A DNA stretch of 64,000 nt from Candidatus Saccharimonadales bacterium (GTDB taxonomy: Bacteria; Patescibacteriota; Saccharimonadia; Saccharimonadales; EFPC-124). The notes beneath the pieces are model-generated. The model searched no databases. It was not told the DNA's origin and saw only the letters and a program-made list of their open reading frames with translations. A program made the position numbers and the translations under genes. Numbering within the stretch: position 1 is the first letter of the stretch; each line of letters opens with the position of its first letter. Location: contig DATEFB010000007.1 of assembly GCA_035280845.1 (NCBI GenBank), forward strand, positions 5,778-69,777, read 5' to 3'. Positions 6,430 to 62,351 of this stretch are shown piece after piece.

Positions 6430-6468
6430 CTTCGCGCCTGCCCCAATGGTGCTGGGGCAGGCGCGAAG
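6430..6468 (-). terminator. 15-bp perfect GC-rich hairpin downstream of the 6475..6804 ORF (no T-tract)
   Basis: cttcgcgcctgcccc (6430-6444) pairs perfectly with ggggcaggcgcgaag (6454-6468). Confidence 0.55.
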
Positions 6469-6474
6469 GGGCAC

Positions 6475-6804
6475 CTAATGCCGGCGCAGGCGGTACACAA
6501 GCGCCGCGATGATGTACACGAGCACGAGACAGCCGATGAAGAGGGGGATGGACCCCCACCACGACCAGCCGAAGGCTGAGGTGAGGCCGCTCGCCAGCGC
6601 GCCCGATGGAACGAACAGGACGGCCGCCTTGGTGAAGTTCTCCCGGTAGCTTCCGCCGCCGAAACCGAAGGTGGCAATCTCGCCAACGCCGTGGATGACG
6701 CCGGCCAGGATTGCTGCCGCGACCAGCGCGATCAGGCCGCCCTTCAGCGCCCAGGCGATATCGCTCCCGGTCACATCGACAGTAAACTGCAGTGCTGCGT
6801 TCAT
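6475..6804 (-). CDS. Small three-helix membrane protein, unknown function (high-GC cassette A)
   Basis: 109 aa with a strong SD (aacaGGAGGaatgaATG) and mostly G/C third positions. Three hydrophobic segments. TTGACT-16-TATAAT lies in the AT-rich upstream flank. Confidence 0.6.
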   Translation of the reverse strand: MNAALQFTVDVTGSDIAWALKGGLIALVAAAILAGVIHGVGEIATFGFGGGSYRENFTKAAVLFVPSGALASGLTSAFGWSWWGSIPLFIGCLVLVYIIAALVYRLRRH

Positions 6805-6905
6805 TCATTCCTCCTGTTGAGGACGACAAATCGGTGACTTAATTATAAAATAAGCTATTATTTAGTCAAGTATTACAAGAATAATAATGATGTTAACAAA
6901 GTACC

Positions 6906-6934
6906 TTGACAGTCATAGTAATATGACTTACACT
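6906..6934 (+). promoter_or_regulatory. Sigma70-type promoter giving a leaderless padR transcript
   Basis: TTGACA (6906-6911), 17-nt spacer, TACACT (6929-6934). The ATG at 6941 is 7 nt downstream and has no SD. Confidence 0.5.
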
Positions 6935-6940
6935 GTATTT

Positions 6941-7270
6941 ATGATGAACAAGAATATGTCATCGGATTTGCTCCGTGGCCATACCGACACCATCGTCCTG
7001 AAACTTTTGGAAGGTGGCGATAAGTACGGCTACGAAATCACTAAATTAGTGTATGAGCATTCCGGCCAGAAGTACGAATTAAAAGAAGCCACCATGTACT
7101 CGAGCCTGAAGCGTCTCGAAAACGATGGGCATATCACCTCGTATTGGGGTGATGAAACCCAGGGCGGCCGCCGCAAATACTACCGCATTACCCCGTCCGG
7201 GCGTGTGCTATATAAAGACAATAAGCAGAACTGGGACAGCGCAAAGCAGATCCTGGGCAACCTATTATAA
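6941..7270 (+). CDS. PadR family transcriptional regulator
   Basis: 'LLRGHTDTIVLKLLEGGDKYGYEITKLV....YELKEATMYSSLKRLENDGHITSYWGDETQGGRRKYYRITPSG' is a canonical PadR winged helix. Start chosen from promoter geometry; the ORF track starts at 6887. Confidence 0.8.
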   Translation: MMNKNMSSDLLRGHTDTIVLKLLEGGDKYGYEITKLVYEHSGQKYELKEATMYSSLKRLENDGHITSYWGDETQGGRRKYYRITPSGRVLYKDNKQNWDSAKQILGNLL

Positions 7271-7283
7271 GAAGGAAATAATT

Positions 7284-8078
7284 ATGGAAAAGAAACTACA
7301 GTCATTCTTAGAAAAAACATTTGAACCCTACGGTGCGTTCCCATCCCGCGCAGACGTGATGCAGGAAATGCGCGTTAACTTGCAAGAGAAATACGCTGAC
7401 CTGAAAGGCCAGGGCATGGGCGACAAAGAAGCCTATGAAGCAACGATTGAATCGTTTGGTGACATTGCCGAAATCATGGAGCAATTGCCCCACGGCACAG
7501 CCGACGAGCCAGCTGCCCGCCGCGCAAGCAAAGCCAAGTTCAAAATGGTTTCGTTGAAGGAAGTTGACCTTGGCGACTCTAACCTGAGCACGGCGAACTT
7601 TAGCGGCAGTGATATTGCGGGCACATCGTTCGACAATTCGAACATGACCGGCGCGGTGATGATGGGCGCAAATGCCAAGAACACATCGTACGTTAATACA
7701 AACCTAACCGACGCTAAGTTCGGGGCAAGCAACCTGCAATACGCGCGTTTTAACAAAGCCAATCTGACTCGCACAACATTTAGTGCGTCTGCCTTGAAAG
7801 AAGTTAAGTTCACCGATGCAGTTTTGCTCGACACATTGTTTAGTCGCTGCGACATGGGCGGGGTAGCATTCGATAACCTCACTCTTGATGGTGTTGCCTT
7901 TGAAGCGACATCGCTCAAGGGAGTCACGTTTAAGGGTGCAACTATTACGAACGTGTCATTCCATCACAGTGAGGTAAAGCACGCCAACTTTGACGGCGCC
8001 ACAATGGACAAGGTAACCTACGCAATCCTGCAGGGTGCAAAAGCGAACCTGCAAAACGTTACTGTCGCAACGAGCTAG
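7284..8078 (+). CDS. PadR-associated N-terminal helical domain fused to a pentapeptide-repeat domain
   Basis: The N-terminus 'MEKKLQSFLEKTFEPYG...DVMQEMRVNLQEKYADLKGQGMGDKEAYEATIESFGDIAEI' resembles DUF1700-type partners of PadR. From about residue 95 there are tandem pentapeptide repeats ('ANFSGSDIAGTSFDNSNMTGAVMMGANAKNTSYVNTNLTDAKFGASNLQYARFNKANLTRTTF...'). Confidence 0.7.
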   Translation: MEKKLQSFLEKTFEPYGAFPSRADVMQEMRVNLQEKYADLKGQGMGDKEAYEATIESFGDIAEIMEQLPHGTADEPAARRASKAKFKMVSLKEVDLGDSNLSTANFSGSDIAGTSFDNSNMTGAVMMGANAKNTSYVNTNLTDAKFGASNLQYARFNKANLTRTTFSASALKEVKFTDAVLLDTLFSRCDMGGVAFDNLTLDGVAFEATSLKGVTFKGATITNVSFHHSEVKHANFDGATMDKVTYAILQGAKANLQNVTVATS

Positions 8079-8097
8079 TGCTATACTTACGTCTGTT

Positions 8098-43648: not shown

Positions 43649-43651
43649 GCT

Positions 43652-46105
43652 ATGGCACTCGAAAAGTACCACGCAAAACGCGATTTTAAGCAGACACCCG
43701 AACCAAAGGGTAAGCCTCGGGCATCGGGCAAAAAGTTGGCGTTCGTGGTACAGGAGCACCATGCTACGCGTCTGCATTATGATTTTCGGCTAGAACTTGA
43801 TGGCGTCCTGAAGAGTTGGGCTATTCCAAAGGGCCCGTCAATGGACCCGCACGAGCATCATCTGGCCGTCATGACCGAAGACCATCCATACGAATACCGT
43901 AAGTTCGAGGGTGTGATCCCCGAAGGCAATTACGGCGCTGGCAACGTGATTATTTGGGATGAAGGCTGGTACGAACCACGCGAGGAAACAGGCAACCAGG
44001 AAGATGTTTTGCGGCGCGAGGCCAAGAAAGGCCATATTACTTTTGTGCTTCACGGTAAAAAGCTGCACGGCGAATTCGCGCTGATTAAAATGGCAAATGC
44101 CAAAGACGATGACGCCTGGCTACTTGTAAAAAAAGGTGATGCTTTTGCCAGTACCAACGACATAACAAAGCAAGACGAGTCGGTAAAAAGCGGACGCACA
44201 GTCGACGAGGTACGGGGCGGCAAAAAAGTGCCCGACCTTTCTGCGTACGCTAAAAAAGCATCGCCGTGGGCGGTGAAACCAATGCTTTGCACGTTGGTGG
44301 ACGAGATCTTCGATAAAGAGGGCTGGTTATTCGAAATTAAGTGGGATGGCTACCGGGCAATCGGGCAGAGGCACGACTCTGACGTGCGGCTATACTCGCG
44401 CGCTGGCACCGATTTTATGACGCACTACCCGCCTGTTGCCGAAGCCTTTCGAGCGCTAAAGCACGACGTTATTCTGGACGGCGAGATTGTAGTAACTGAC
44501 GACGCTGGCGTACCGCATTTTGAATGGTTGCAAAGCTGGCGCCACGCACCGCAGGGTCGGTTGCAGTACCAAGCGTTCGATATTCTGTGGTGCGATGGGT
44601 TCGATGTGCGCACTATGCCACTTATTGAACGCAAAGCGTTGTTGCGGGCCGTGCTGCCGGGTGGATCGCTGCTTCGGTACAGCGACCACGTTGAAACAAA
44701 AGGCATGGCTCTGTTTGCTGAAATGCAGCGCCGGGGGCTGGAGGGCGTTGTTGCTAAAAAGGCAGATAGCCTGTACCAGGAGAATAATCGCGGGAGTGCC
44801 TGGCTCAAAATAAAGACGCATTTACGGCAGGAAATCGTGATCGGTGGGTATACTGAGCCGCGCGGTGGTCGCAAGTATTTAGGCTCGTTGCTCGCGGGCG
44901 TGTACCACAAGGGTGAATTTGTGTATGTGGGCCATTCTGGGGGTGGTATCCCCGACGACCAGCGCAAACTTCTGTTCGAGAGATTGCAGCGGCTGGAACG
45001 CAAGTCGTCACCATTTGCGACCGAGCCAAAACCAAACGCACCTGTGCATTGGGTGCGACCAGAGGTAGTCGCCGAAATGTCGTTTAGCGAATGGACCGAA
45101 GACGGCTACATGCGCCATCCTGCATTTGTGGGTCTAAGAACCGACAAGAAAGCTATAAACGTAAAGCGCGAGAAGCCAAAAAACGGCGTCGTGCCCGTAG
45201 CAAAAACAAAGGAGCATACTATGCCCGAGGCCAAAATAGAATTTACACACCTGGACAAAGTGTTTTTTCCAAAGCATAAATACACCAAAGGCGACATTAT
45301 TGATTATTACAAAACAGTCGCCAGTGTCATGTTGCCGTATGTAAAGGACCGCCCACATTCTATGCTGCGGCAGCCGGACGGCATAAAAGGCTTTGGGTTC
45401 TTCCAGAAAAACAACGAGCATTTGCCGGCGTGGGTGCCAAGCGCCGATATTTTTTCGGAGTCTAATAACGAAGATTTGCATTGGATTGTCGGCGGCGAGC
45501 TGGACACGCTTTTGTACATGGTGCAGCTGGGAACGATCGAAATAAATCCCTGGAATTCACGAGTCGGCCATTTAAACAAGCCCGACTGGATTGTGATTGA
45601 CCTTGATCCTGACGGCGCACGGACATTCAAAGACGTGGTCGAGGTGGCGCACACGGTAAAGGCAGTCTGCGACGAGTGGCACATTCCAACTTACCCAAAA
45701 ACATCGGGCAAAACCGGCATCCATATTTTTGTGCCAATGCAGGCAAAATACACCTATGAGCAAGCCAAGAACCTGGCGCATTTAATTGTGCTTGAGGTGA
45801 ACCAACGGCAGCCAAAAATAACCAGCGTCGAGCGCATGCCAGACAAGCGCCGCAACAAAATTTACCTGGATTTCTTGCAAAACCGCGAAGGCCAAACGCT
45901 TGCCGCACCCTATTCTGTGAGACCAACACCCGACGCGAGCGTCTCGGCGCCGCTGCACTGGCACGAGGTGACGCCAGCCTTAAAACCCTCTGACTTTACG
46001 ATTAAAAATATGCCTGCCCGCATTAAAAAATATGGTGATTTATGGAAGCCGGTCATGGGCAAAGGGATTGATCTGGCGAAAACACTTAAGAAGATAGGCG
46101 ATTAG
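43652..46105 (+). CDS. ligD: Multidomain ATP-dependent DNA ligase LigD (phosphoesterase-ligase-polymerase order)
   Basis: PE domain 'FVVQEHHATRLHYDFRLE...WAIPKGPS'. Ligase 'FEIKWDGYRA' (KxDG). Pol/primase domain 'PDWIVIDLDP...KTSGKTGIHIFVP'. Confidence 0.9.
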   Translation: MALEKYHAKRDFKQTPEPKGKPRASGKKLAFVVQEHHATRLHYDFRLELDGVLKSWAIPKGPSMDPHEHHLAVMTEDHPYEYRKFEGVIPEGNYGAGNVIIWDEGWYEPREETGNQEDVLRREAKKGHITFVLHGKKLHGEFALIKMANAKDDDAWLLVKKGDAFASTNDITKQDESVKSGRTVDEVRGGKKVPDLSAYAKKASPWAVKPMLCTLVDEIFDKEGWLFEIKWDGYRAIGQRHDSDVRLYSRAGTDFMTHYPPVAEAFRALKHDVILDGEIVVTDDAGVPHFEWLQSWRHAPQGRLQYQAFDILWCDGFDVRTMPLIERKALLRAVLPGGSLLRYSDHVETKGMALFAEMQRRGLEGVVAKKADSLYQENNRGSAWLKIKTHLRQEIVIGGYTEPRGGRKYLGSLLAGVYHKGEFVYVGHSGGGIPDDQRKLLFERLQRLERKSSPFATEPKPNAPVHWVRPEVVAEMSFSEWTEDGYMRHPAFVGLRTDKKAINVKREKPKNGVVPVAKTKEHTMPEAKIEFTHLDKVFFPKHKYTKGDIIDYYKTVASVMLPYVKDRPHSMLRQPDGIKGFGFFQKNNEHLPAWVPSADIFSESNNEDLHWIVGGELDTLLYMVQLGTIEINPWNSRVGHLNKPDWIVIDLDPDGARTFKDVVEVAHTVKAVCDEWHIPTYPKTSGKTGIHIFVPMQAKYTYEQAKNLAHLIVLEVNQRQPKITSVERMPDKRRNKIYLDFLQNREGQTLAAPYSVRPTPDASVSAPLHWHEVTPALKPSDFTIKNMPARIKKYGDLWKPVMGKGIDLAKTLKKIGD

Positions 46106-49134: not shown

Positions 49135-51996
49135 ATGAAACGATACAATCCCGCCGATATTGAACCAAAATGGCAAAAGGTCTGGGAAGACCAGCAAACA
49201 TACAAAGCCGACAACACCAGTAAAAAGAAACCATATTACGCGCTGAGCATGTTTCCATACCCAAGTGGTATTGGACTGCACATTGGCCACGCACGCATTT
49301 ATAGCACCACTGATGTGTTGGCACGTTTTATGCGCATGCAGGGGTACGAAGTGATGCAGCCATTTGGCTGGGACAGCTTTGGTTTGCCCGCCGAGAATTA
49401 TGCAATTAAAACCGGTACGCCGCCACAAGTTGTGACTAAGCAAAATACCGACAACTTTCGTACGCAGGCCAAGCATTTAGGCCTGTCGATTGACTGGTCG
49501 CGCGAATTTGCCAGCACCGACCCCGACTATTACCGCTGGACCCAGTGGTTTTTCCTGCTGCTGCACAGGCGTGGCTTAGCCTACCAAAAAGAGAGCGCCC
49601 AGTTTTGGTGCAATGAATGTAAAACCGTACTGGCAAACGAACAGGTTGTAAACGGGTGCTGCTGGCGCCACGAAGACAAGCCGGTAACCAAGAAGACCCT
49701 GAAGCAATGGTTCTTTAAAATTACCGATTATGCCGATCGTCTGGAAGCTGACTTGGACCAAGTTGACTGGCCGGAAGGCATTAAAAGTATGCAGCGCAAT
49801 TGGATTGGCCGCAGCAAGGGCGCCGAGGTGGACTTTGCAGTTGATGGCAGGGACGAGACCATTAAAATCTTCACCACACGAGCTGACACGTTATTTGGTG
49901 CCGCCTTTATGGTGCTGGCTCCCGAGCACGAGCTTGCCCGAACCATTACAACTCCCGAAAAGCTGCGTGACGTTGACATGTATATAAAGCAGGCCGAGAC
50001 CAAAACCGACATCGACCGCATGGACGAAGGCCAAGATAAATCCGGTGTCTTTACGGGCGCCTACGCAATCAACCCGGTGAATGGCGAGAAGATTCCAGTC
50101 TGGATCGCCGATTTTGTTTTGGGTGGATACGGCACTGGCGCTATTTTTGCAGATGCCCACGACAGCCGCGACGTTGCGTTTGCTCGCCAACACAACATTG
50201 CGCTCAAAGACACTATTGAACCCGAAACCGGCACGCCTCAACAAAACCCCGAATTCCGCCGCAGCATCGTTGCCATTGTGCGTAACCATAAGACCGGTGA
50301 AGTCTTAACGATTAACTGGGGCAAAATGGGCGGCAGCCTGTTTGTAGGTGGTGGCCGTGATGACGAAGAAGACATAATCGCCTGTGCCGAGCGCGAGATC
50401 CGCGAAGAAACCGGCTACACCAACATCCGCTTCGTAGCAAAAACAGGCACGATCCACCACAACTACTTTGCGGCAAGCAAGAACGTCGCCCGACGCATCG
50501 AGGCGCATGGTTTATTGTTCGATTTAGTCGACGAATCGCGCCAGGAAGCAAAGCTCGAAGCTGACGAACAGGGCAAATTCACTGTTGAATGGCTGCCTCA
50601 GAACGAAGTCGAATCCAAAGTGCGCGATGAGCTGCACGCTTTGGTCTTTACCCGCCTGGTCAAGAACGAGGCCTACACCGGCGAAGGCATTTTGGTTGAT
50701 TCGGGTAAGTACAGCGGCATGCGCAGCAGCGAAGCCCGCGAGCACATTGTTGCCGACCTAGAGGCGCAAGGCGTGGGCAAAGAGCGAGTCAACTACAAGA
50801 TCCGCGATTGGCTGATCAGCCGTCAGCGCTATTGGGGTGCGCCAATTCCAATCATCCACTGCCCGAAAGACGGCATTGTGCCTGTGCCCGAAGACCAGCT
50901 GCCCGTGCAATTACCCGAATTAAAAGAATTCCAACCTTCGGGTGATGGCCGGTCGCCACTGGCAAATGTCCGCGACTGGGTAGAGGTTGCATGCCCAACG
51001 TGTGGCGGTCCAGCCGAGCGCGAAACTGACACTATGGATGGTTTTGCCTGCAGCAGCTGGTACTTCCTGCGATTTGCTGACCCTAAAAACAATAGCGAAC
51101 CATTCAGCCGCGAACTGGCCGAAAAATGGCTGCCCGTGAACACCTACGTTGGTGGTGCTGAGCACGCGGTTATGCATTTGCTGTACGCTCGCATGTGGAC
51201 AAAAGTCATGTTCGACGAAGGCATGATAAGCTTCCAGGAACCGTTTACTGCATTGCGCAGCCAGGGAATGTTGCTGGCTCCAGACGGCGGCAAGTTTAGT
51301 AAGAGTAAAGGCAACGGCGTAGATCCCGAAGACGTTATTAATAGCGGATACGGGGCGGATGCGCTGCGCACGGTACTGATGTTCCTGGCGCCATTCGACC
51401 AAAAAACGCCGTGGAGCCCAGAAGCACTGGGTGGCGTGTACCGTTTCTTAAACCGCATCTGGACCATTGCTCAAGAGGTTGACGAAAAAGCGAAGGGCTC
51501 CGATCAAAGCGACGACCTGCGTCGTTCGGTGCACAAAGCCATTAAAAAAGTTACCGAAGACATGCAACAGATGGGCTTTAACACCGCCATTGCCGCCGTC
51601 ATGGAGTTGGTCAACGAGCTGTACAAGCATGCCAAGACTCAGGACATGGCGCAGTATGGCGATGACTGGCGCTGGGCAATAAAAACAACCGCGCAGCTTA
51701 TTGCGCCCTGTGCCCCGCATTTGGCCGAGGAGTTGTGGCAGCAGTTTGGCGGCGAGGGCTCGGTGGCGGTCAGTGAATGGCCTCACTTCGACAAAGCATT
51801 GCTAGTCGCTTCGACCATTACCATTGTGGTGCAGGTGAATGGTAAGATTCGCGCAAAGTTAGAGATGCCTGCGCAGGCATCGGAGGCTGATGTAAAGTCT
51901 GCGGCTTTGGCAGACGACCATGTTAGGCAGTTTGTGTCCGGCGATCCTAAGAAGGTCATTTACGTACCCGGCAAATTACTGAGTATTGTGGTTTAG
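49135..51996 (+). CDS. leuS: Leucyl-tRNA synthetase with an inserted Nudix domain (about residues 362-512)
   Basis: 953 aa. 'PYPSGIGLHIGH' (HIGH), editing domain 'TTRADTLFGA' and 'AHDSRD', 'RDWLISRQRYWGAPIP', 'KFSKSKGN' (KMSKS). Extra segment with a perfect Nudix box 'GGRDDEEDIIACAEREIREETGY'. Confidence 0.95.
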   Translation: MKRYNPADIEPKWQKVWEDQQTYKADNTSKKKPYYALSMFPYPSGIGLHIGHARIYSTTDVLARFMRMQGYEVMQPFGWDSFGLPAENYAIKTGTPPQVVTKQNTDNFRTQAKHLGLSIDWSREFASTDPDYYRWTQWFFLLLHRRGLAYQKESAQFWCNECKTVLANEQVVNGCCWRHEDKPVTKKTLKQWFFKITDYADRLEADLDQVDWPEGIKSMQRNWIGRSKGAEVDFAVDGRDETIKIFTTRADTLFGAAFMVLAPEHELARTITTPEKLRDVDMYIKQAETKTDIDRMDEGQDKSGVFTGAYAINPVNGEKIPVWIADFVLGGYGTGAIFADAHDSRDVAFARQHNIALKDTIEPETGTPQQNPEFRRSIVAIVRNHKTGEVLTINWGKMGGSLFVGGGRDDEEDIIACAEREIREETGYTNIRFVAKTGTIHHNYFAASKNVARRIEAHGLLFDLVDESRQEAKLEADEQGKFTVEWLPQNEVESKVRDELHALVFTRLVKNEAYTGEGILVDSGKYSGMRSSEAREHIVADLEAQGVGKERVNYKIRDWLISRQRYWGAPIPIIHCPKDGIVPVPEDQLPVQLPELKEFQPSGDGRSPLANVRDWVEVACPTCGGPAERETDTMDGFACSSWYFLRFADPKNNSEPFSRELAEKWLPVNTYVGGAEHAVMHLLYARMWTKVMFDEGMISFQEPFTALRSQGMLLAPDGGKFSKSKGNGVDPEDVINSGYGADALRTVLMFLAPFDQKTPWSPEALGGVYRFLNRIWTIAQEVDEKAKGSDQSDDLRRSVHKAIKKVTEDMQQMGFNTAIAAVMELVNELYKHAKTQDMAQYGDDWRWAIKTTAQLIAPCAPHLAEELWQQFGGEGSVAVSEWPHFDKALLVASTITIVVQVNGKIRAKLEMPAQASEADVKSAALADDHVRQFVSGDPKKVIYVPGKLLSIVV

Positions 51997-52051
51997 AGTG
52001 CAAAAGGCGGCACCCGGGTGAGCCCGGGGCCGCCTCGCATCTTGCAACCCG

Positions 52052-52597
52052 TCAATGTGCCAGCATGACACCACGCATGGCCGGCTGTTCCTGGAATGCC
52101 GCGACGAGCGATTCGACATCGCTCGTCGACAGCTCAGTGGCAGCCGTCAGACGCTCCACATATTCGGGGTTGGGGCCGCTTGCGACCAGTCCGCCCAGGG
52201 CTTCCCATTCGGCCAGGTCCAGATCGGGCACGGGCACCAGCGGTCGATGGCGCCGGTGCATGTCGTCGAGGTGGTCGAGGATGGTGATCGGCTGGCCTTG
52301 CGGCGAGTACGGTCCCCACTCATTCAGGATCCGAAGCCGCAGGCCTTCTGCGACGTCAGTCGCTCCGAGCCTGGCCAGCGCCGTGAAGACGCCAGTCGCG
52401 GTAGTGCGGTAGTCGAGCGTGCTGCTGTAGTAGGCGGGCCAGGGCCGCTCGTCGTCCCGCGGCTTGGTGAGTGTGGCCTCGGTCTCGGCGAACTTGTTCA
52501 GGGTCCGCAGGGCGAGGTACCACAACTCCCTTATGCGGTTGATGCGCATCCGTTCCTTGTGGGCGGCAATCGCGTCTGCGTCGGGCTCTCGGCTCAT
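52052..52597 (-). CDS. Hypothetical cytosolic protein (high-GC cassette D)
   Basis: 181 aa from ATG 52597 (AAGGGAG upstream). Third codon positions are overwhelmingly G/C in this frame, which argues for it over the antisense ORF. A GC-rich hairpin lies at about 52003-52035. Confidence 0.55.
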   Translation of the reverse strand: MSREPDADAIAAHKERMRINRIRELWYLALRTLNKFAETEATLTKPRDDERPWPAYYSSTLDYRTTATGVFTALARLGATDVAEGLRLRILNEWGPYSPQGQPITILDHLDDMHRRHRPLVPVPDLDLAEWEALGGLVASGPNPEYVERLTAATELSTSDVESLVAAFQEQPAMRGVMLAH

Positions 52598-52737
52598 CGG
52601 TACTCCCTTAGTCGGGTGCAAAATACGTATATACTATAAAATATTATATGACATACCACAATAACCATTGCGAGTTTCAAGTAGTTACGCTATAATTACG
52701 CTCAAGTAAATACAGATAAACAAAGGAGGCTTTCTTT

Positions 52738-52905
52738 ATGGGTAAACCAAAGAAGCAAACATCTCCGCGCAAGACCGGCCTGCGTCGCAGCCACTTGAGC
52801 CTTGAGCTCAAGCGCCGTGTCAACGGCTTACTGTCAAAGGCTGGCAAGAAGGTCAAGGCAGTTACCACCAAGCGCGAAACCGGTAAAAAGAAGGCTAAGG
52901 CGTAG
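52738..52905 (+). CDS. rpmF: 50S ribosomal protein L32
   Basis: 55 aa, below the ORF-track cut-off. 'MGKPKKQTSPRKTGLRRSHLSL' matches the L32 N-terminus. AAAGGAGG SD lies 8 nt upstream; TATAAT at 52692-97. Confidence 0.85.
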   Translation: MGKPKKQTSPRKTGLRRSHLSLELKRRVNGLLSKAGKKVKAVTTKRETGKKKAKA

Positions 52906-52949
52906 TCGCCTGAAGCTTAATTTCAGTTAACTTTAACAAACTTCTACTT

Positions 52950-53411
52950 ATGGCATCGAACCGTCACCTTGGTCGCATTATTGCTCTGCAAACGCTCTAC
53001 GAATTTGAGTTCCGTCAAGACAGCGCTGACGCACTGGCTGACGTCGACGAAATCCTTGGGCGTAACCTCGAACGATACGACGAAACAATCGACGACAAGA
53101 GTTTTGTCCAGCAGCTGGTCCACGGCGTGCGTGCAAGCGTCGCCAAACTCGATGCTACTATTCAGCCAATAGCCCCCGAATGGCCGCTGGAACAAATCGC
53201 ACGTATTGACCGTACTATCCTAAGAATGGCCCTCTATGAGCTGCTCGAGATGAGCGACAAGGTACCGCCAAAAGTGGCTATTAATGAGGCTGTAGAGCTC
53301 GCCAAGGCTTTCGGTTCCGACAATTCGTCGAAGTTTGTGAACGGCGTGTTGGGTACGGCCTACCGTACGCTGATCGAAGGAAAAGAAGCCGATGGCAATG
53401 CAAGTTCCTAA
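52950..53411 (+). CDS. nusB: Transcription antitermination factor NusB
   Basis: 'NRHLGRIIALQTLYEFEFR', 'RIDRTILRMALYELL...PPKVAINEAVELAKAFG...SKFVNGVL'. Confidence 0.85.
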   Translation: MASNRHLGRIIALQTLYEFEFRQDSADALADVDEILGRNLERYDETIDDKSFVQQLVHGVRASVAKLDATIQPIAPEWPLEQIARIDRTILRMALYELLEMSDKVPPKVAINEAVELAKAFGSDNSSKFVNGVLGTAYRTLIEGKEADGNASS

Positions 53412-53895
53412 GTTTGAGCGTTTCAAGAAATATTTTCAGCGCCACAAACCTATAATCCAAGAAGTAATACGCGAGCAGACCGCCGGTGGGGTGGTGTTCC
53501 GTCGTAACGAAAAAACCAAGGACCTTGAAGTGCTGCTAACCCAGGACGCCAAGGACCGCTGGACAATCCCTAAAGGTCACATCGAAGAAGGTGAGACTGC
53601 CAAAGAGACAGCCGAGCGCGAGATTCGTGAAGAGACCGGCCTCCAGAAAATGGAAGTCATGAGCTGGCTCGGCAAAATTAATTTCCGCTATCGCCGCCAG
53701 ACAAGCCTGGTGCTCATGACGACCCAGATTTACCTGGTCCATGGCCTGGGCGACACCGATAACTTGGCCAAAGAGGATTGGATGAATGGCATCGGCTGGT
53801 TTAAAGTCCACGACGCACTTGATATGATTGAATACGAAGACATAAGCAAATTATTGCTCGTAGGAATGAAAAAAATCAGGCATGCAGGACTTTAG
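53392..53895 (+). CDS. Nudix hydrolase
   Basis: Nudix box 'GHIEEGETAKETAEREIREETGL'. Overlaps the nusB 3' end and the rnc 5' end. Confidence 0.8.
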   Translation: MAMQVPKFERFKKYFQRHKPIIQEVIREQTAGGVVFRRNEKTKDLEVLLTQDAKDRWTIPKGHIEEGETAKETAEREIREETGLQKMEVMSWLGKINFRYRRQTSLVLMTTQIYLVHGLGDTDNLAKEDWMNGIGWFKVHDALDMIEYEDISKLLLVGMKKIRHAGL

Positions 53896-54589
53896 CCCGT
53901 ACCAGACATTTGCCAAAGATTCATTCGGCTTTATTTTTGATGAGCCGCAGTTGTTTATGACGGCCCTGACCCACCGAAGTTACGTGAACGAGCACAAAAA
54001 AAGCACTAAAGAGCACAACGAACGCCTGGAGTTCTTAGGTGACGCCGTGCTCGAATTGGTGGTGACCGAATATTTATACAAGAATTACGACGACCCAGAA
54101 GGCATTTTGACTAATTGGCGCGCCGCTTTGGTTCGCACCGAATCTATCGGCGCTGCCGGGGCAAAGCTTGGGCTGGAAGAACTTATGCGTATGAGCCGTG
54201 GCGAGAAGCATGGTAGCAGCTCGCGCGCCCGTCAACAGATTTTGGCGAACGCCTTCGAAGCCGTTATTGGTGCAATCTACATCGATAAAGGCTACGACCA
54301 AGCCAGCACGTTCATTCACCAACACATTTTAAGTACATTCGACGAGATCCTCGAAACAGGGTCCTGGCGAGATGCCAAGTCGCGCCTGCAGGAAGTTGCG
54401 CAGAGCGCAGAAGGACAGACTCCTGTTTATAAGGTTCTCGAAGAGACTGGTCCTGATCACGATAAGATTTTTACTCTCGGCGTATATGTAGCTGGCGCCC
54501 TGAAGGGCAAGGGCACCGGGCCTTCCAAGCAGGTCGCCCAGCAAGAGGCTGCAAAGGCGGCGCTTGCGAGTTACAAGCAGGTAAAGTAG
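53882..54589 (+). CDS. rnc: Ribonuclease III
   Basis: 'NERLEFLGDAVLELVVTEYLY' signature, C-terminal dsRBD 'GPDHDKIFTLGVYV...GTGPSKQVAQQEAAKAAL'. Confidence 0.9.
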   Translation: MQDFSPYQTFAKDSFGFIFDEPQLFMTALTHRSYVNEHKKSTKEHNERLEFLGDAVLELVVTEYLYKNYDDPEGILTNWRAALVRTESIGAAGAKLGLEELMRMSRGEKHGSSSRARQQILANAFEAVIGAIYIDKGYDQASTFIHQHILSTFDEILETGSWRDAKSRLQEVAQSAEGQTPVYKVLEETGPDHDKIFTLGVYVAGALKGKGTGPSKQVAQQEAAKAALASYKQVK

Positions 54590-54694
54590 ACGCCATTCTG
54601 GCCCCTTGCGGTGAACCTCATTGACAACAGAGGCGATACCCTGTAAAATTGCCAAGAGTTTAACACTACAGTTTAATAAAGGAATTTTTGTTAC

Positions 54695-55078
54695 ATGCTC
54701 GCAATTCGTTTGCAACGTCATGGCCGTAAAGCAGCTCCGGTTTACCGCGTGGCTGTTCAAGAAGCCCAACGACACCCCAGCAGCGGCCGTGTTGTCGCCT
54801 ATGTGGGTGCCTATAACCCTCACACTAAAGAATCTAAAATCGACGCAGAAAAAGTCGAATTCTACCTTAAGAATGGTGCACAACCAAGCCCTCGCGTAGT
54901 GCGTTTGCTCGAAGAAGCCAAGGTGAACCTGCCAGCTTGGGTAAAATCTACCCGCACCGACAAAGCTGCAAAACTGCGCAATCCAGACAAGCTGCGTAAG
55001 AACCAGCCAAAAGAAGAAGCTCCTGCAGAGGCACCAGCCGACGAAGCAGCTCCAGCAGAAGAAAAAACCGAAGAATAA
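54695..55078 (+). CDS. rpsP: 30S ribosomal protein S16 with a Lys/Ala/Glu/Pro-rich C-terminal extension
   Basis: 'MLAIRLQRHGRKAAPVYRVAVQEAQ..PSSGRVVAYVGAYNP'. Confidence 0.9.
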   Translation: MLAIRLQRHGRKAAPVYRVAVQEAQRHPSSGRVVAYVGAYNPHTKESKIDAEKVEFYLKNGAQPSPRVVRLLEEAKVNLPAWVKSTRTDKAAKLRNPDKLRKNQPKEEAPAEAPADEAAPAEEKTEE

Positions 55079-55120
55079 AAAAGAGCACCTCGCATCAGCG
55101 GGGTGTTTTTATTGTCGGAT

Positions 55121-55165
55121 TGGGGTGTCCCCCGGGTTGCAGCGATAAGCTCTGCTGCAACCCGG
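55121..55165 (-). terminator. 13-bp GC-rich hairpin downstream of the alpha-CTD-like ORF
   Basis: ccccgggttgcag ... ctgcaacccgggg is a perfect inverted repeat, 23 nt past the stop at 55188. Confidence 0.55.
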
Positions 55166-55187
55166 GGAGACCGGTTTGTGGAGCCGG

Positions 55188-55625
55188 TCAGGCGGCGAGC
55201 GCCGGGACGGCGTCCTCCTTCAGCTTGAGCCGGGCGTCGAGCGCGGCGAGCTTGGGGACGATGTCCAGGTCGATGGTCCGCTGACCGATGCCCTTGATGC
55301 CCAGCAGGTCGGCCTCGCTGAGGTCGATGAGCTGGCCCACCGTGTGGATGCCGGCCTTCTTGAGGGCGTTGTAGGGCCGGATGCCCAGCTTGACGTCCTC
55401 GATCGTCTGCGCGCGCAGGTTCTCCAGCGGGACGACGGTCGGCGTCTGGCCCGTGGTGCTGGCGCGCGCGATCCGCGAGATGCCCTTGCTGGGGCTGGCG
55501 GTGTTGCCGACCGGGGTCTTGTTGAGGGACCGCTTGGTGGCCGGCGGGGGCACGATGCCGTTGCGCAGGTTGCGCGCCTTCTTGCGGCGCTGGTTGCGGC
55601 GACGGTCGGCCAGGGTCATACGCAT
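55188..55625 (-). CDS. Stand-alone RNA polymerase alpha-subunit C-terminal-domain (alpha-CTD, HhH) like protein with a basic N-terminus (high-GC cassette E)
   Basis: 'IEDVKLGIRPYNALKKAGIHTVGQLIDLSEADLLGIKGIGQRTIDLDIVPKL' parallels the RpoA CTD 'LELSVRSxNCLKRxGIxTxGELxxxxExxLLxIxNxGxKSxxEIKxxL'. N-terminus 'RRRNQRRKKARNLRN'. SD GGAGG. 69 G+C in 55201-55300 by hand count. TTGCAT-17-TATTAT in the AT-rich flank. Confidence 0.7.
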   Translation of the reverse strand: MRMTLADRRRNQRRKKARNLRNGIVPPPATKRSLNKTPVGNTASPSKGISRIARASTTGQTPTVVPLENLRAQTIEDVKLGIRPYNALKKAGIHTVGQLIDLSEADLLGIKGIGQRTIDLDIVPKLAALDARLKLKEDAVPALAA

Positions 55626-55779
55626 AACTTACCTCCGGAAGGAGACGGTCTGAGATGACTAAAAAATATAATACCACAAATATTGTTATAATGCAAGCAT
55701 TTTGTTACCACGAGCAGTTTGCGTGTGCCCGGCATCCTACGCTACAATGTCTGTATCAGGTAATCGTAAGGGAGACTGT

Positions 55780-56214
55780 ATGACCAGTATTGACCAACAG
55801 TTTGTGGAGTTCATTGTAAAATCGCTTGTCAGCAAACCAGAGGCAGTTACCATCGAGCGCCGCATTGATGAAAAAGGCGTATTGCTTGAACTGACCGTTG
55901 ACCCCGAAGACCTTGGCCGCGTTATTGGCAAGCGGGGTGCAACCGCTCAGAGCGTGCGTACATTGCTCCGCGCCCTTGGTACAAAGAATGACGCACGGTA
56001 CAACTTGAAAATCGTTGATGTTGACCGCCCAGGCGGCGTTTCGACTGACGGCTCAGATGATCCTGCAGTGGCCGACGACGAAGATACTACCCCATTAAGT
56101 GCTGCTCCAAGCAAGCCTGTGGAAGAAACAACAGAGAAGCCTGTGGAAGAAAAAGAATCAGTAGCAAGTCGGACCAGAAAAGAACTTGCAGATATGGATG
56201 ATCTCGACATATAA
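55780..56214 (+). CDS. KH-domain RNA-binding protein (YlqC/KhpA-like) with acidic C-terminal extension
   Basis: 'FVEFIVKSLVSKPEAVTIERRIDEKGVLLELTVDPEDLGRVIGKRGATAQSVRTLLRA'. AAGGGAG SD. Confidence 0.8.
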   Translation: MTSIDQQFVEFIVKSLVSKPEAVTIERRIDEKGVLLELTVDPEDLGRVIGKRGATAQSVRTLLRALGTKNDARYNLKIVDVDRPGGVSTDGSDDPAVADDEDTTPLSAAPSKPVEETTEKPVEEKESVASRTRKELADMDDLDI

Positions 56215-56310
56215 TAAAACTAAGTTCGAAAGATCGAACAGCAAAAACAAAAAGAAAAGCTCGTGCGAGCAAAGAGGGATTTTATCCCAAATTGAGAGCT
56301 TTATGTGGCG

Positions 56311-56340
56311 AAACAACCCTCCATTGCGGGGGTTGTTTTG
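56311..56340 (+). terminator. Intrinsic terminator after the KH-domain gene
   Basis: aaacaaccctc-cattgc-gggggttgttt followed by T-tract. Confidence 0.8.
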
Positions 56341-56414
56341 TATCTGAAAGAAATAATAACAAGAGTTGGACTGACGCCCGCACCCGACGTCGTTGGCGGG
56401 TGCGGGCGGCAGGT

Positions 56415-56759
56415 TCAGCAGATGAAGCGCGCGGCCTCGGCGGCGATGGCTCTCATCCTGATTGGAACGTCCTCGGGGACTCCGTGCAGGATGTAGACAT
56501 CGATTGTGCAGTTCCAGACCAGGCCGTGCGACGGCGCGTCGTAGCGGCCCTCTGGCGCCCTTGTCGGGTCGGACCACAGGTAGGCGAGGTGTTCGAACGC
56601 CCTGAGCGCAGCAGCATCCTCTGTGGTCGCCTCATCGGCGACAGTTTCGGTATCCACTCCCAGCTCGGCGCAAATGCGCAACTGGATGAGCTGGTAGATT
56701 GCCGGGGTCGGACGTGTTGCTTGCTGAAGGGCGGCGTCTGTCGTGGCGAACGGTGTCAC
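56415..56759 (-). CDS. Hypothetical protein (high-GC cassette F)
   Basis: 115 aa from GTG 56759 (GAAGGAG upstream; TTGAAA-17-TATAGT further up). G/C-rich third positions. 11-bp GC hairpin cgcccgcaccc/gggtgcgggcg lies just past the stop (about 56375-56410). Confidence 0.45.
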   Translation of the reverse strand: MTPFATTDAALQQATRPTPAIYQLIQLRICAELGVDTETVADEATTEDAAALRAFEHLAYLWSDPTRAPEGRYDAPSHGLVWNCTIDVYILHGVPEDVPIRMRAIAAEAARFIC

Positions 56760-56868
56760 GGGACTCCTTCTGCTTGGCGTATACACATGCTGTGCGTACG
56801 GCTTCACTACTATAAAATGTAAGTCGTAACTTTTCAATATGCGCTTCAGCCCGTATAATCAGAAACAT

Positions 56869-57531
56869 ATGAAACCCAGGCTTATTCAGGTCATTACGCT
56901 TTTCCCCGAGATGTTCGACGGTGTGTTCGGCGCGAGCATGCTTTGGAAGGCTCAGGACCGCGACATTGTAAAGTTCGCGGCTATTAATTTGCGTGAATAT
57001 GGCCTTGGCCCCCGGCATCAGGTAGATGATACTCCGTACGGCGGTGGCGATGGCATGTTGCTGAAACCCGAGCCACTTTTTGCTGCAGTAGAGGCCGCCA
57101 AAAAGAATGACCCCGATGCCCAGGTGCTCCTTATGACGCCACGCGGCGAACGCTGGGTGCAGGCCAAGGCGCAAGAAATGGCCGACGATGGCCGGGGCCT
57201 GATTATTATCTGTAGCCGTTACGAGGGCTACGATGAGCGTATTACTACTATTGTTGACCGCCAGCTTTCGATTGGCGATTACGTCCTGACCGGAGGTGAA
57301 CTTGCTGCTATGGTTGTCGTAGATAGCGTTACCCGTTTGATTCCGGGCGTATTGGGCGGTGAAACCAGCGCCGAGATTGAAAGCTTCAGCGATGGTGAGA
57401 CCCTTGAGTTCCCTCAGTACACCCGTCCTGCTGATTTTCGCGGCATGAAAGTCCCTGATGTTCTTTTGAGCGGAAATCACGCTCAAATTCTTGCATGGCG
57501 CAAAGATAATTCTCCAAAAATACAGCCCTAA
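56869..57531 (+). CDS. trmD: tRNA (guanine37-N1)-methyltransferase
   Basis: 'VITLFPEMF', 'DDTPYGGGDGMLLKPEP', 'IICSRYEGYDERI', 'SIGDYVLTGGELAAMVVVDSVTRLIPGVLG'. Confidence 0.9.
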   Translation: MKPRLIQVITLFPEMFDGVFGASMLWKAQDRDIVKFAAINLREYGLGPRHQVDDTPYGGGDGMLLKPEPLFAAVEAAKKNDPDAQVLLMTPRGERWVQAKAQEMADDGRGLIIICSRYEGYDERITTIVDRQLSIGDYVLTGGELAAMVVVDSVTRLIPGVLGGETSAEIESFSDGETLEFPQYTRPADFRGMKVPDVLLSGNHAQILAWRKDNSPKIQP

Positions 57532-57814
57532 TTAAAAAACTTCCCGAACAGGAAGCGTGCCGTTAAGGGCCAGGGCAAGGGGTAGTTTCGCAAATACATT
57601 GCTACTTGTACCACTTGCCGTGGCATAGAAGAGTTGTTGTGGTGGAACAAAAGCGATCCAGACTTTTTATTTTTCGTGGTGTTTGTTCGTACAGTTTCGC
57701 TTAAGGATATCGTACTTTGTTATTTCGGTAAGCGCAAGCTCTTTAGCGCAAAATTACAACACAAGCGTTTTTGGCCAAGGGAGTATAATAAGAGAAGCTT
57801 AACGGAGACCGACA

Positions 57815-58228
57815 ATGGGGTTATTCACTAAATTCATTAAACCTGTGTATGCTCACTGCGATGTTCCGTGCGGCATCTACGAAACTGACACAATGCGCCA
57901 CGCTGCCGACACCTGCCTAAAGATGATCGAGAAAATCGAAGCCTTACCAGATGAAATGGGTGAGAAGTCGGCCGACCACAACAACTACATCCGCATGGTC
58001 ATGACCAAAGAAAAGCACGCCCAGCTGTGTAAAGAGCAGATTTATCTTTTATGGAGCGATTACTTTAAGCCTGAGCACCTGCAAAAGTTCCCCGACCTGC
58101 ACGACACTATGTGGCAAGCGGCCAAGCAGTGCGGTAAGGTTAAGCAAACCGTCAGCCGTGAAGAAGTGCAGAAACTTATTGACCAAGTAGCAACAATATC
58201 TAAGGTTTTTGAGGAATCGCACCACTAA
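57815..58228 (+). CDS. sodN: Nickel superoxide dismutase precursor
   Basis: Pro-peptide 'MGLFTKFIKPVYA' followed by the Ni-hook 'HCDVPCGIY'. Confidence 0.9.
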   Translation: MGLFTKFIKPVYAHCDVPCGIYETDTMRHAADTCLKMIEKIEALPDEMGEKSADHNNYIRMVMTKEKHAQLCKEQIYLLWSDYFKPEHLQKFPDLHDTMWQAAKQCGKVKQTVSREEVQKLIDQVATISKVFEESHH

Positions 58229-60637: not shown

Positions 60638-60646
60638 GGAGATCCC

Positions 60647-61093
60647 ATGGATACCCCACAAACTACACCAACACCAAGTAAAGAAATGCAACGGCTCAGC
60701 CAGAAATTGGTTGGCAAAGCGCAGCTAAGTGGCGGCGTGACCGGCACAAGCCACTGTGAAGTAATGGAGGGCGGGTTTTTCTTGCTGCAGCACGTTGATA
60801 TTACCCAGAATGGCATGCACATTAAGGGCATCGAGATCATTGGCCACTTAAAAGCTTTTGGTGCTGAACCAACGGCGGAAATCCATTCACGTTTTTACGA
60901 TAACAACGGCAATACGCTCGACTATACCTATGAGCTCAGTGAGGATGGCCGGAAACTCACAGTTTGGGGTGGCGAAAAGGGCTCCCCGGCTTATTACGAG
61001 GGTATCTTTAATGACGACGGTACGTGTAATGGTGAGTGGCATTACCCTGGCGGTGGGGGCTACAAAATGACTACGAAGCCAGTGAAGGGATAA
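60647..61093 (+). CDS. Small soluble beta-rich protein, unknown function
   Basis: 148-aa ORF with GGAG upstream. No firm motif. Confidence 0.45.
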   Translation: MDTPQTTPTPSKEMQRLSQKLVGKAQLSGGVTGTSHCEVMEGGFFLLQHVDITQNGMHIKGIEIIGHLKAFGAEPTAEIHSRFYDNNGNTLDYTYELSEDGRKLTVWGGEKGSPAYYEGIFNDDGTCNGEWHYPGGGGYKMTTKPVKG

Positions 61094-61096
61094 GTC

Positions 61097-61768
61097 ATGC
61101 CAAAACTTAGCATTACTACCAAGCCGCTGTCTCCGCTTGCAATTAACCTGGCGCGCGTCTCGGCAGCGAGCGCGGCATTATTCTTGGTTCTGTTCGCCCT
61201 GCTTCATGTTCTTAAGCCGGAGATCGACCCATCGTGGCGATTCATTAGCGAGTACCAACTTGGCCAATACGGCTGGATGATGCACCTTGCATTTTGGTCG
61301 CTTGCTGTTAGTTCGGCTTCGCTTTGGTTTGCAGTCAAGTCGCAAATTCGAACCATCGGTGGGTATATCGGCCTCTTCTTCCTGTTCGTGGCCACGATTG
61401 GTTTTGTGCTGGCCGCCGCCAATACTACTGATCCTATTACGGCTACGGTTGGGACCGACGCTGGCCGGATCCACAGTACCGGTGCGCTGCTCGCCAGTAA
61501 TGTAACCGGCGCCATCTTCTTTCTGTCTTGGAGTCTGGCACGCAATAAAGGCTGGGCCAAGATTCGCACATCACTGTGGTGGGTTGCCGCGATCGGTATT
61601 TTGACCAACCTCGCCTCGTTTTGGATGCAGGGCATTATGGCCCAGCACCAGAACGTCTTTGGTCCCGACACTCCGATTGGTTTGCCAAACCACCTGCTGA
61701 TCATTGGCCTGGCTGGCTGTCTTTTGGTCATGGCGTCACGTATTATCACGGCGCCAAAGCACCAGTAA
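61097..61768 (+). CDS. Polytopic membrane protein (DUF998-like)
   Basis: 223 aa, 6 helices. 'LHVLKPEIDPSWRFISEYQLGQYGWMM' resembles DUF998. Confidence 0.5.
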   Translation: MPKLSITTKPLSPLAINLARVSAASAALFLVLFALLHVLKPEIDPSWRFISEYQLGQYGWMMHLAFWSLAVSSASLWFAVKSQIRTIGGYIGLFFLFVATIGFVLAAANTTDPITATVGTDAGRIHSTGALLASNVTGAIFFLSWSLARNKGWAKIRTSLWWVAAIGILTNLASFWMQGIMAQHQNVFGPDTPIGLPNHLLIIGLAGCLLVMASRIITAPKHQ

Positions 61769-61829
61769 GTTAACAGGTGTCATCTTGTGGTATAGTAAAT
61801 TCGCCCATCGACGCCACTAGGAGGCGAAC

Positions 61830-62300
61830 GTGTTGGAGAGTACATTGCCCGGAGTGTGGCACATCCAAGGCACTCACGAGAACATGCGGCTGGCGTTCCA
61901 CGACAACCGCACCTGGTACCTGGGCGGAACAAAAAGCCCGGCAATGAGTGGTACCTGGGAGACGACCTATGCTGGAGTGACGATGCGCGCGACGCAGGTC
62001 GGCTCTGCTGCTGGGCGTGGGCTTGCCATTGCGGCCGCCGGTCTGGTGCTCGGCCTGTCACTGGGCACTGCGGTGGTTGTTGCGCCTGCGGTGATCGCGG
62101 GCATCGTGGCATCGAACGCCCAGCGGGAGGGGAATCCTGGCCCCTTCGCCACGTTTGGCCGGTTCGATGTCTTCACTGGCAGGGCTGTGGCGGAGTACCA
62201 GCTCGTGACAGAGTCGCACTACCAGGTCGTCATGCGGTGCGACTTCCGGAACGGCAGTTACTCCGATACTCACCTCGCCACGCTTACCCGCGTGGCCTGA
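61830..62300 (+). CDS. Hypothetical protein with a central Ala/Gly/Val-rich TM hairpin (high-GC cassette G)
   Basis: GTG start with AGGAGG 5 nt upstream. 156 aa. 'GLAIAAAGLVLGLSLGTAVVVAPAVIAGIVA'. Followed by a 12-bp hairpin plus T5. Confidence 0.5.
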   Translation: MLESTLPGVWHIQGTHENMRLAFHDNRTWYLGGTKSPAMSGTWETTYAGVTMRATQVGSAAGRGLAIAAAGLVLGLSLGTAVVVAPAVIAGIVASNAQREGNPGPFATFGRFDVFTGRAVAEYQLVTESHYQVVMRCDFRNGSYSDTHLATLTRVA

Positions 62301-62305
62301 TCAGT

Positions 62306-62351
62306 GGCAAGTGCCGACCCGCGTTATGGGATCGGCACTTGCCCAGTTTTT
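62306..62351 (+). terminator. Intrinsic terminator
   Basis: ggcaagtgccga ... tcggcacttgcc (12 bp perfect) followed by cagTTTTT. Confidence 0.8.

Follow-up and report, generated by a model that had tools for sequence, protein, structure and literature searches.

A 64,000-nt stretch of contig DATEFB010000007.1 (hereafter the window, to which all positions refer), from a soil metagenome-assembled genome of Candidatus Saccharimonadales, contains seven GC-rich islands. They are real monocistronic units (C1–C7; Table 1), each with its own sigma-70-like promoter, a Shine–Dalgarno (SD) sequence, a GC-rich open reading frame (ORF), and a long hairpin terminator. With a probability of roughly one half, we interpret them as old accessory genes of high-GC origin that reside in fixed intergenic slots, are inherited with their flanks, and are turned over slot by slot. 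Comparison of sequences among relatives shows that, along the tree, slots are filled and emptied and change between non-homologous occupants, and that whole alleles are exchanged occasionally. The pattern is more general than an initial annotation of this DNA had recognized, since GC-rich, hairpin-terminated, fast-evolving single-gene units in fixed slots are found clade-wide. TrmD and neighbouring proteins assigned the window to Candidatus Saccharibacteria (TM7), whose cultured members are epibionts of Actinobacteria; the guess that the organism lives with Actinobacteria was thus a fitting one.

Composition and architecture of the GC-rich units

The GC content of the window was 0.527. A scan in 150-nt windows with a GC threshold of >0.62 recovered all seven cassettes at the places originally reported, in a backbone with a median GC content at third codon positions (GC3) of 0.58 and a median absolute deviation of 0.027. 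Cassette GC3 exceeded that of the backbone by 3 to 10 robust standard deviations; of the G/C-saturated third positions that had been described, a raised GC3 (0.71–0.98) held throughout, and true saturation only in C5. Each island had one frame with the coding signature GC3 > GC1 > GC2. The islands stood as delimited, and the coding sequences (CDS) of C3, C4, and C6 had to be corrected to bounds that agree with public gene calls (Table 1); start-site calls for C5, C6, and C2 vary between public sources. Recoding the same proteins with backbone codon usage gave a GC content of 0.56–0.60, compared with 0.60–0.70 observed; therefore, amino-acid composition alone, which the initial annotation had named as a possible refutation, does not account for the GC-richness. 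Amino-acid usage was also shifted toward Gly, Ala, Arg, and Pro (GARP/FYMINK ratios of 1.3–2.35 vs. a backbone median of 1.08), and the cassettes resembled high-GC genomes at all three codon positions as well as in amino-acid usage.

All units comprised one ORF, a GGAGG-type SD sequence, and an AT-rich upstream stretch with sigma-70-like hexamers. A GC-rich hairpin of 12–17 bp lay within a few bases 3' of the stop codon in all seven, with a T-run at C4 and C7 and none in most of the others, which bears out the architecture first proposed. The whole 64 kb contained only six hairpins with a stem of at least 13 bp, three of which were cassette 3' hairpins. A generic scan found 13 promoter-like hexamers against 8.4 ± 2.7 expected, which is not a significant enrichment. 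As originally reported, mutual comparison of the seven cassettes revealed no common sequence, and neither flanking direct repeats in the window nor an integrase or transposase among the annotated genes across the window was found. No tRNA adjoined the cassettes.

Occupants of the same slots in related genomes

C4, C5, and C6 occupy gaps of a housekeeping cluster whose gene order (leuS–55-aa ORF–nusB–NUDIX–rnc–rpsP–KH–trmD–sodN) is conserved across the phylum, and all three are encoded on the strand opposite to the cluster. Close relatives were gathered via 90% clusters of RNase III (L168, L169/L170, L171–L174, L175, and L176/L177; rnc 89–93% identical). Only the slots were counted, as a screen of 2.1 Mb of related loci for GC3-outlier ORFs proved too noisy, with conserved genes also passing in their antisense frames. 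Every close relative carried small, mostly minus-strand, Pfam-less genes in the same gaps. Their GC3 was 0.56–0.97 (at least 0.66 in 20 of 21 values), compared with 0.42–0.64 in the flanks. A strong 3' hairpin was present in 19 of 19 slot genes, the first 70 nt having a ΔG of −23 to −45 kcal/mol, compared with approximately −12 to −24 kcal/mol for most native genes.

The rpsP/KH occupant, s5, was homologous to C5 in L168, L169, L171, L172, L175, and L176 (30–49% identical). Orthology extended in four genomes over the divergent KH/s5 promoter region, the SD sequence, the N-terminal peptide, the 3' hairpin, and the rpsP terminator. The peptide, MR(M/R)(T/R)LADRRR, was recognizable in these genomes with synonymous differences, and between L169 and L171 the hairpin showed a compensatory A–T to G–C change. 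In L085, the nearest of the long metagenome relatives (flank proteins 77–95% identical), rpsP and KH are only approximately 110 nt apart; the promoter of KH aligned, and the entire C5 unit, including its promoter, was missing. The initial annotation had placed the promoters in the AT-richer host flank; direct contradiction of this exists only for C5, since its promoter was present or absent together with the gene in the comparison of L085 and the four genomes. The presence/absence differences between close relatives that had been anticipated were not seen for C4, C5, and C6, whose families are present in relatives with RNase III identities of 89–93%; C5 was absent only from the more distant L085.

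The leuS/nusB genes formed two related families, one C4-like (L171/L172, 29% identical to C4) and the other consisting of paralogous s4b genes (L169, L171, L175, and L176). The C4-family hairpin also terminates the convergent leuS; in the window it begins 4 nt after the leuS stop codon and thus acts as a bidirectional terminator. An orthologue of C6 was found in the KH/trmD gap only in L168 (55% identity), and an unrelated family, s6', filled this gap in L001, L085, L169, L171, L172, L175, and L176. RimM was considered as the KH/trmD occupant and rejected, as there was no Pfam match on either strand. A fourth slot, trmD/sodN, held one or two s8 genes in five relatives and was empty in the window (57532–57814, 284 nt) and in L168. 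Distant Saccharibacteria (TrmD approximately 71% identical) had GC-rich minus-strand orphans in the rpsP/KH gap, at 8282–8839 in L017 (GC 0.64 vs. 0.455), 8371–8811 in L025, and 8565–8993 in L019; because these genes are unrelated to C5, the slot phenomenon reaches beyond the clade.

Table 1. Positions, products, and expression signals of the GC-rich units, with the conserved scaffold and the genes of the fourth slot
Feature	Coordinates	Strand	Island (150-nt scan)	CDS and product	GC3	Signals
C1	6430–6869	−	6407–6829	6475–6804; 109 aa, hydrophobic, no Pfam	0.83	TTGACT-N17-TATAAT promoter 6842–6869; AGGAGG SD 6802–6815; 16-bp perfect hairpin 6430–6468
C2	27295–29039	+	27295–29039	27295–28770; 491 aa, signal peptide, CHAP, tectonin-like beta-propeller repeats	0.77	
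C3	31200–31677	+	31232–31713	31268–31603; 111 aa, zf-TFIIB zinc ribbon and Gly/His-rich tail	0.85	TTGACA-N17-TATGAT promoter 31200–31229; AAGGAG SD; hairpin 31641–31677
C4 (leuS/nusB slot)	52000–52653	−	51986–52621	52052–52597; 181 aa, no Pfam	0.80	promoter-like region 52626–52653; hairpin and T-run 52000–52038
C5 (rpsP/KH slot)	55128–55696	−	55078–55666	55188–55625; 145 aa	0.98	TTGCAT...TGGTATTAT promoter 55668–55696; GGAGG SD; 15–17-bp hairpin 55128–55170
C6 (KH/trmD slot)	56371–56837	−	56353–56768	56415–56759; 114 aa, GTG start, no Pfam	0.71	TTGAAA-N17-TATAGT promoter 56809–56837; SD; 16-bp hairpin 56371–56412
C7	61785–62343	+	61865–62339	61830–62300; 156 aa, GTG start, central hydrophobic segment, no Pfam	0.76	TG-extended −10 (TGGTATAGT) 61785–61796; AGGAGG SD; hairpin and T-run 62306–62343
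Housekeeping scaffold (gaps = slots)	49135–58228	+		leuS, 55-aa ORF, nusB, NUDIX, rnc, rpsP, KH, trmD, sodN		
s8 genes (trmD/sodN slot)	L169 13683–14234; L171 13664–14167; L175 9762–10969	−		167–191 aa, GC-rich, tandem paralogues in L175/L176		

Evolutionary rates and allele replacement

At fourfold degenerate sites of the flanks, the divergence (K) between the window and its relatives was approximately 0.87–0.95. Because the genomes sharing C4, C5, and C6 have diverged to this extent, these slot genes are old residents rather than recent imports. The ratio of nonsynonymous to synonymous divergence (dN/dS, ω) between the window and its relatives was uninformative, with synonymous sites near saturation and an extreme GC3, and the unsaturated pair L175 and L176 was used instead. 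The flanks of this pair had a dS of 0.315, a dN of 0.007, and an ω of 0.02, and the slot genes s4, s5, s8a, and s8b had corresponding values of 0.216, 0.057, and 0.27, with a range of ω of 0.18–0.46. These rates indicate that the slot genes are inherited together with the flanks, are not hypermutated, evolve approximately 8-fold faster as proteins, and remain under purifying selection. They therefore encode functional, weakly constrained or diversifying proteins and are not hypermutated DNA. Hypermutation and a diversity-generating retroelement were both ruled out by the normal dS and the lack of a reverse transcriptase; the scanned genes of the window had no such domain, nor was a repeat resembling a template found. 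The differences between C5 alleles included indels and all residue types.

The gene s6 was the exception in L175 and L176, with a dS of 1.04 and 54% amino-acid identity between flanks that were 98–100% identical, and represents an allele replaced by recombination. A similar case was found on two sister-strain contigs (Joint Genome Institute (JGI) sample 3300078620), in which RNase III was 98.7–99.1% identical and the C5 homologue in the same slot only 46%, the N-terminal 25 residues and a C-terminal PALAA being conserved. The C6 variants in the sister strains were 90–92% identical; of the two JGI contigs, the one reaching the KH/trmD gap had a C6 of 90% identity.

Predicted products and the origin of C5

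C5 combines an Arg-rich N-terminus with a helix-hairpin-helix (HhH) domain of the type of the RNA polymerase alpha subunit C-terminal domain (alpha-CTD), residues ~70–125 matching PF03118 at 51.6 bits (cut-off 23.8). Its scores against NCBIfam rpoA models were 32–51 bits (cut-offs 228–523), and no alpha N-terminal domain was present; C5 is an alpha-CTD-only protein and not RpoA. Compared with RpoA of solved structures, the domain scored 49 bits for Streptomyces coelicolor, 44 for Mycobacterium tuberculosis, 40 for Clostridioides difficile, and 22 for Escherichia coli, Clostridioides and Bacillus ranking after the actinobacterial proteins at 35–40 bits. The positions that we take to be the Arg, Asn, and Gly residues contacting DNA in the E. 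coli alpha-CTD appear, from the alignment, to be retained.

The s5 protein of L168 was 48% identical over 106 aa to residues 238–337 of Tsukamurella RpoA, and Streptomyces and Tsukamurella came first among plasmid matches to C5. With a profile built from the two alleles most similar to RpoA, 37 proteins outside the cluster of C5 itself were retrieved (42–64% identical, mostly 45–53%), all with the actinobacterial-type RpoA C-terminal form '...GELVARSEADLLDIRNFG...LKDSPPGFDP...ETEQY', an assignment made by reading the sequences, as the few names given by sources were mixed. An exhaustive search with the C5-family profile returned mainly proteins with multiple alpha-CTD repeats and only two full-length representatives. 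Scans of viral contigs with the C5 family profile or C2 gave no match. We infer that s5/C5 may derive from the 3' part of an actinobacterial rpoA that had been captured.

Two side observations concern the same gene. The C5 5' untranslated region (UTR) (55626–55660, −) has a possible small stem, CTCC-TTCC-GGAG, that takes in the SD sequence, with similar CCGGAGG/GGAGG contexts in L168 and L171, and could serve translational control. A stop-free antisense frame of C5/s5 (55176–55658, +, in the window) misleads gene callers; at L168 1382–2440, KH was called as a 352-aa fusion through the s5 antisense frame, and s5 itself was missed.

Among the other products, Pfam confirmed the CHAP domain with propeller of C2 and the zinc ribbon of C3, as it did the alpha-CTD of C5, in line with the initial annotation. 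C1 and C7 had hydrophobic segments. The CHAP domain of C2 scored 41 bits (Pfam threshold 26), with a weak PHROG endolysin match. Its C-terminal propeller (tectonin/CV39L-type; repeat period 141 nt) scored 87–90 bits in NCBIfam, under cut-offs of 200–350, and was 25–35% identical to tectonin-domain proteins of Streptomyces and other taxa by tblastn. Downstream of the C2 ORF lies a GC-rich, apparently non-coding tail of approximately 290 nt (28771–29060) with strong hairpins, including those at 28810–28835 and 28961–28998; it had no Rfam match and may represent either a 3' UTR with structure or what is left of additional foreign DNA. The zf-TFIIB domain of C3 (PF13453) scored 40.4 bits (threshold 22). 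C1, C4, C6, and C7 belonged to no family in Pfam, NCBIfam, or PHROGs, and a single-sequence AlphaFold model of C4 was all-helical with a predicted local distance difference test score of 52, too poor for a fold search. Regarding the taxonomy of best matches, only the C5 domain was closest to Actinobacteria, at approximately 50% identity; the matches of C2 and C3 were taxonomically diffuse (the C3 ribbon matches Vibrio and Rhodobacter), and C1, C4, C6, and C7 had none in plasmids or phages.

Weighing the explanations

The source of the window is a metagenome assembly, and composition shifts sharply at ORF boundaries, as in an assembly or binning artefact in which actinobacterial reads are chimerically joined into a Saccharibacteria contig. 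However, C1, C5, and C6 with their flanks were 100% identical in contigs of two European Nucleotide Archive assemblies, C1 with its flanks was also identical in a Logan assembly of another run, and diverged orthologues occupied the same sites in at least six other assemblies. The independent assemblies already refute this reading, whose probability is negligible, and dispose of the chimeric junctions that the initial annotation had considered. An integron-like mobilizing system, in which an ORF and its 3' inverted repeat would form a mobile cassette with an attC-like site, is very improbable. An ORF followed by an imperfect inverted repeat was indeed found in seven of seven units here and in 19 of 19 across relatives, but the 3' hairpins shared no core sequence between families, there was no integrase or other recombinase in the window, the units own promoters and are scattered rather than arrayed, and the hairpins, in which compensatory changes are seen, also serve convergent genes as terminators. 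The initial annotation favoured recent, independent, and precise captures of single actinobacterial genes, perhaps by Ku/LigD-mediated nonhomologous end joining (NHEJ) and using pre-existing host promoters, which we regard as unlikely. Its attractions are a composition as in genomes of ~70% GC (strongest in C5), the lack of mobility genes and repeats, the presence of Ku and LigD within the window, the actinobacterial-like domain of C5, and the fact that C1, C2, C3, and C7 have no relatives on record, so that recency is possible for them. Recent capture is refuted, however, for C4–C6, orthologous residents of the same slots in six to seven genomes at a fourfold K of ~0.9. C5 is not recent, because it is only ~50% identical to any actinobacterial RpoA, and its promoter belongs to the unit. 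No donor sequences were found. The same slot genes occur in relatives that lack Ku/LigD at the syntenic position, and capture by NHEJ has no support. Of the proposed repeated acquisition from high-GC donors, slot turnover in deep time stands, concretely for the C5 domain only, no donor having been found for the other six cassettes.

A competing account, tentative and clearly short of even odds, is that GC-richness is actively maintained by a gene-specific force, either GC-biased gene conversion or selection on synonymous sites, for example for mRNA stability or structure or for host-type codon usage. A fourfold K of ~0.9 gives a neutral decay factor of approximately 0.5 per lineage, and neutral amelioration from a GC3 of 1.0 at the clade ancestor then predicts at most approximately 0.78 today (approximately 0.70–0.78 as the ceiling for the families concerned). 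The s5 genes had GC3 values of 0.98, 0.97, 0.90, 0.84–0.90, and 0.77, and the older s6' family was still at 0.68–0.81, out to L001 and L085. Maintenance is also favoured by the high GC3 of s5 from codon 1 next to a promoter that stays AT-rich, by recombinational allele replacement, which was seen twice, and by shifts of GC1, GC2, and amino-acid usage such as GC-biased gene conversion would produce. On the other side, slot-gene dS was not raised, most families (C4/s4b, C6, and s8; GC3 0.56–0.87) fit neutral amelioration, and L168 s6, with a GC1 of 0.75 but a host-like GC3 of 0.56, is a classic case of amelioration; ribosomal protein genes have low GC3, which makes it unlikely that the cell's own tRNAs impose translational selection. 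Substitution polarity was not definable with L171, L172, and L173, as L171 and L173 are identical there. It is doubtful, though conceivable, that a gene-specific non-neutral force has kept the units, above all C5/s5 (GC3 0.9–0.98), at actinobacterial-type codon usage in a genome of ~52% GC, and for longer than neutral amelioration would allow. The most radical form compatible with the data would have the units expressed in, or repeatedly re-templated from, the actinobacterial host, as epibiont effectors tuned to host expression; the compatible features are a sigma-70/HrdB-compatible promoter, a GGAGG SD sequence, host-optimal codons, and a U-less 'I-shaped' hairpin terminator. A milder version would be that the epibiont is naturally competent and that its diversifying, recombination-hot loci undergo strong GC-biased gene conversion.

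Several of these observations weigh against long residence with slotwise turnover as a complete account. Something beyond ancient origin seems to hold GC3 up in s5 and s6', either a local force or the renewal of alleles from a high-GC source that has not been sampled. GC3 is lower in the youngest occupant, C6 (0.71 and 0.56), than in the older s6', the reverse of simple arrival followed by decay. No homologue of C1, C4, C6, or C7, actinobacterial or other, was found in plasmids, phages, NCBIfam, PHROGs, or the related loci, no individual deep search with these four proteins having been made, and full-length C5 relatives with the Arg-rich N-terminus occurred only in Saccharimonadales contexts. 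A derivation of the C5 domain from the organism's own rpoA by duplication is formally allowed, the comparison set being without Saccharimonadales RpoA; no Saccharibacteria rpoA was found among the ~170 related loci. In addition, the model is extrapolated to C1, C2, C3, and C7 because no relatives at 90% identity or above are on record for their strain-specific regions.

If the units are indeed old slot residents, the ultimate donors would be high-GC Actinobacteria, likely the hosts, and C5 would have arisen by fusion of the captured rpoA fragment, in that case from the host, to the Arg-rich N-terminus. Alleles and occupants would be turned over when DNA that has been taken up recombines homologously with the conserved flanks, and not by NHEJ. 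The products may act in the interaction with the host, C2 as a secreted wall hydrolase of CHAP-lectin type predicted from its domains, C5 as a small HhH protein binding DNA or an activator, and C1 and C7 as putative membrane proteins. The long hairpins would insulate the mostly head-on units from the adjoining essential operon.

Neighbouring features of the window

At 42854–46105 the window encodes Ku (264 aa) and a complete LigD of 817 aa, which has phosphoesterase, ligase, and Prim-Pol domains; their GC3 is native-like (0.56–0.59). In L169, L171, and L175 they were missing at the syntenic position, and the 374-aa and Mur-ligase genes are preceded there by other genes; NHEJ thus looks accessory in the clade. 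Beside Ku, an MFS transporter gene (41356–42627, −; GC3 0.70, GC 0.59) represents an eighth, larger, and moderately GC-elevated gene that the initial annotation had not listed. C1 sits between a PadR gene (+) and an MFS gene (−). A 622-aa sigma-70 family protein (36806–38674, −) has regions 2 and 4 only at its C-terminus, preceded by an N-terminal extension of ~430 aa without any Pfam match. The region flanking C3 (31780–36782) encodes a GH6 glycoside hydrolase, a galactose-oxidase-like kelch protein, and a GT2/cellulose-synthase-like transferase, a polysaccharide toolkit that is unusual for a reduced epibiont genome. Within the housekeeping cluster, LeuRS (49135–51996) carries an internal NUDIX domain (PF00293) between its synthetase domains, and the insert was kept in all relatives examined (L085, L169, L171, and L175). 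The 55-aa ORF between C4 and nusB (52738–52905, +) was found at the same place and with the same length in L169, L171, L172, L173, L175, L176, and L177, and is probably a real small conserved gene, to which no function was assigned.

Comparison with known systems and significance

Chromosomal hotspots of accessory-gene turnover between conserved core genes were reportedly described by Oliveira, Touchon, and Rocha in 2017. As in such hotspots, a few intergenic positions between housekeeping genes hold variable lineage-specific genes, often without mobility genes, and recombination in the flanks can swap alleles. In contrast, the slot occupants are single small genes with their own promoter and hairpin in a reduced epibiont genome, are GC-richer than the backbone by 0.1–0.17 (GC3 by 0.15 to 0.4), and in several cases are stably orthologous rather than strain-specific. 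They also share with bacterial ORFans, treated by Daubin and Ochman in 2004, their short length, restricted taxonomic distribution, fast evolution, and general lack of a family; however, classic ORFans are said to be AT-richer than their genome, whereas the slot genes are markedly GC-richer at all codon positions. The amelioration of horizontally acquired genes, reportedly set out by Lawrence and Ochman in 1997, is matched by a GC1/GC2/GC3 composition pointing to a donor of ~65–75% GC and by a GC3 that varies among orthologues, but C5/s5 stays at a GC3 of 0.9–0.98 far longer than that model allows, and most cassettes have no donor homologue.

The C5 domain resembles the actinobacterial RpoA CTD (PF03118), with Streptomyces and Mycobacterium as the best solved relatives; unlike RpoA, C5 is a standalone protein of 145 aa with an Arg-rich N-terminal peptide, is ~50% identical to any RpoA, lies head-on between rpsP and KH, and is hypervariable between strains. 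Integron cassettes likewise consist of one ORF followed by an imperfect inverted repeat, and the units differ from them in their own promoters, the lack of an attC core and an integrase, fixed scattered slots, and terminator-like hairpins. A description of GC-rich single-gene slot units was not found in the literature searched, and the main comparative study of TM7x reported no strong signal of host-derived genes (PMC7427843).

The units described here provide candidate host-interaction genes, namely a protein probably derived from an actinobacterial-type alpha-CTD, a predicted secreted CHAP-lectin, and several membrane and soluble orphans. Saccharibacteria are obligate epibionts, and their molecular dialogue with actinobacterial hosts is poorly known. 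The units also suggest a genomic rule for finding more such genes, namely to look in the fixed gaps of housekeeping clusters for single genes, often head-on, that are GC3 outliers and end in a hairpin. Orphans that are GC-rich rather than AT-rich, with one family staying near a GC3 of 1.0 beyond what neutrality would predict, are relevant to the question of whether amelioration, biased gene conversion, or selection on GC shapes bacterial composition.

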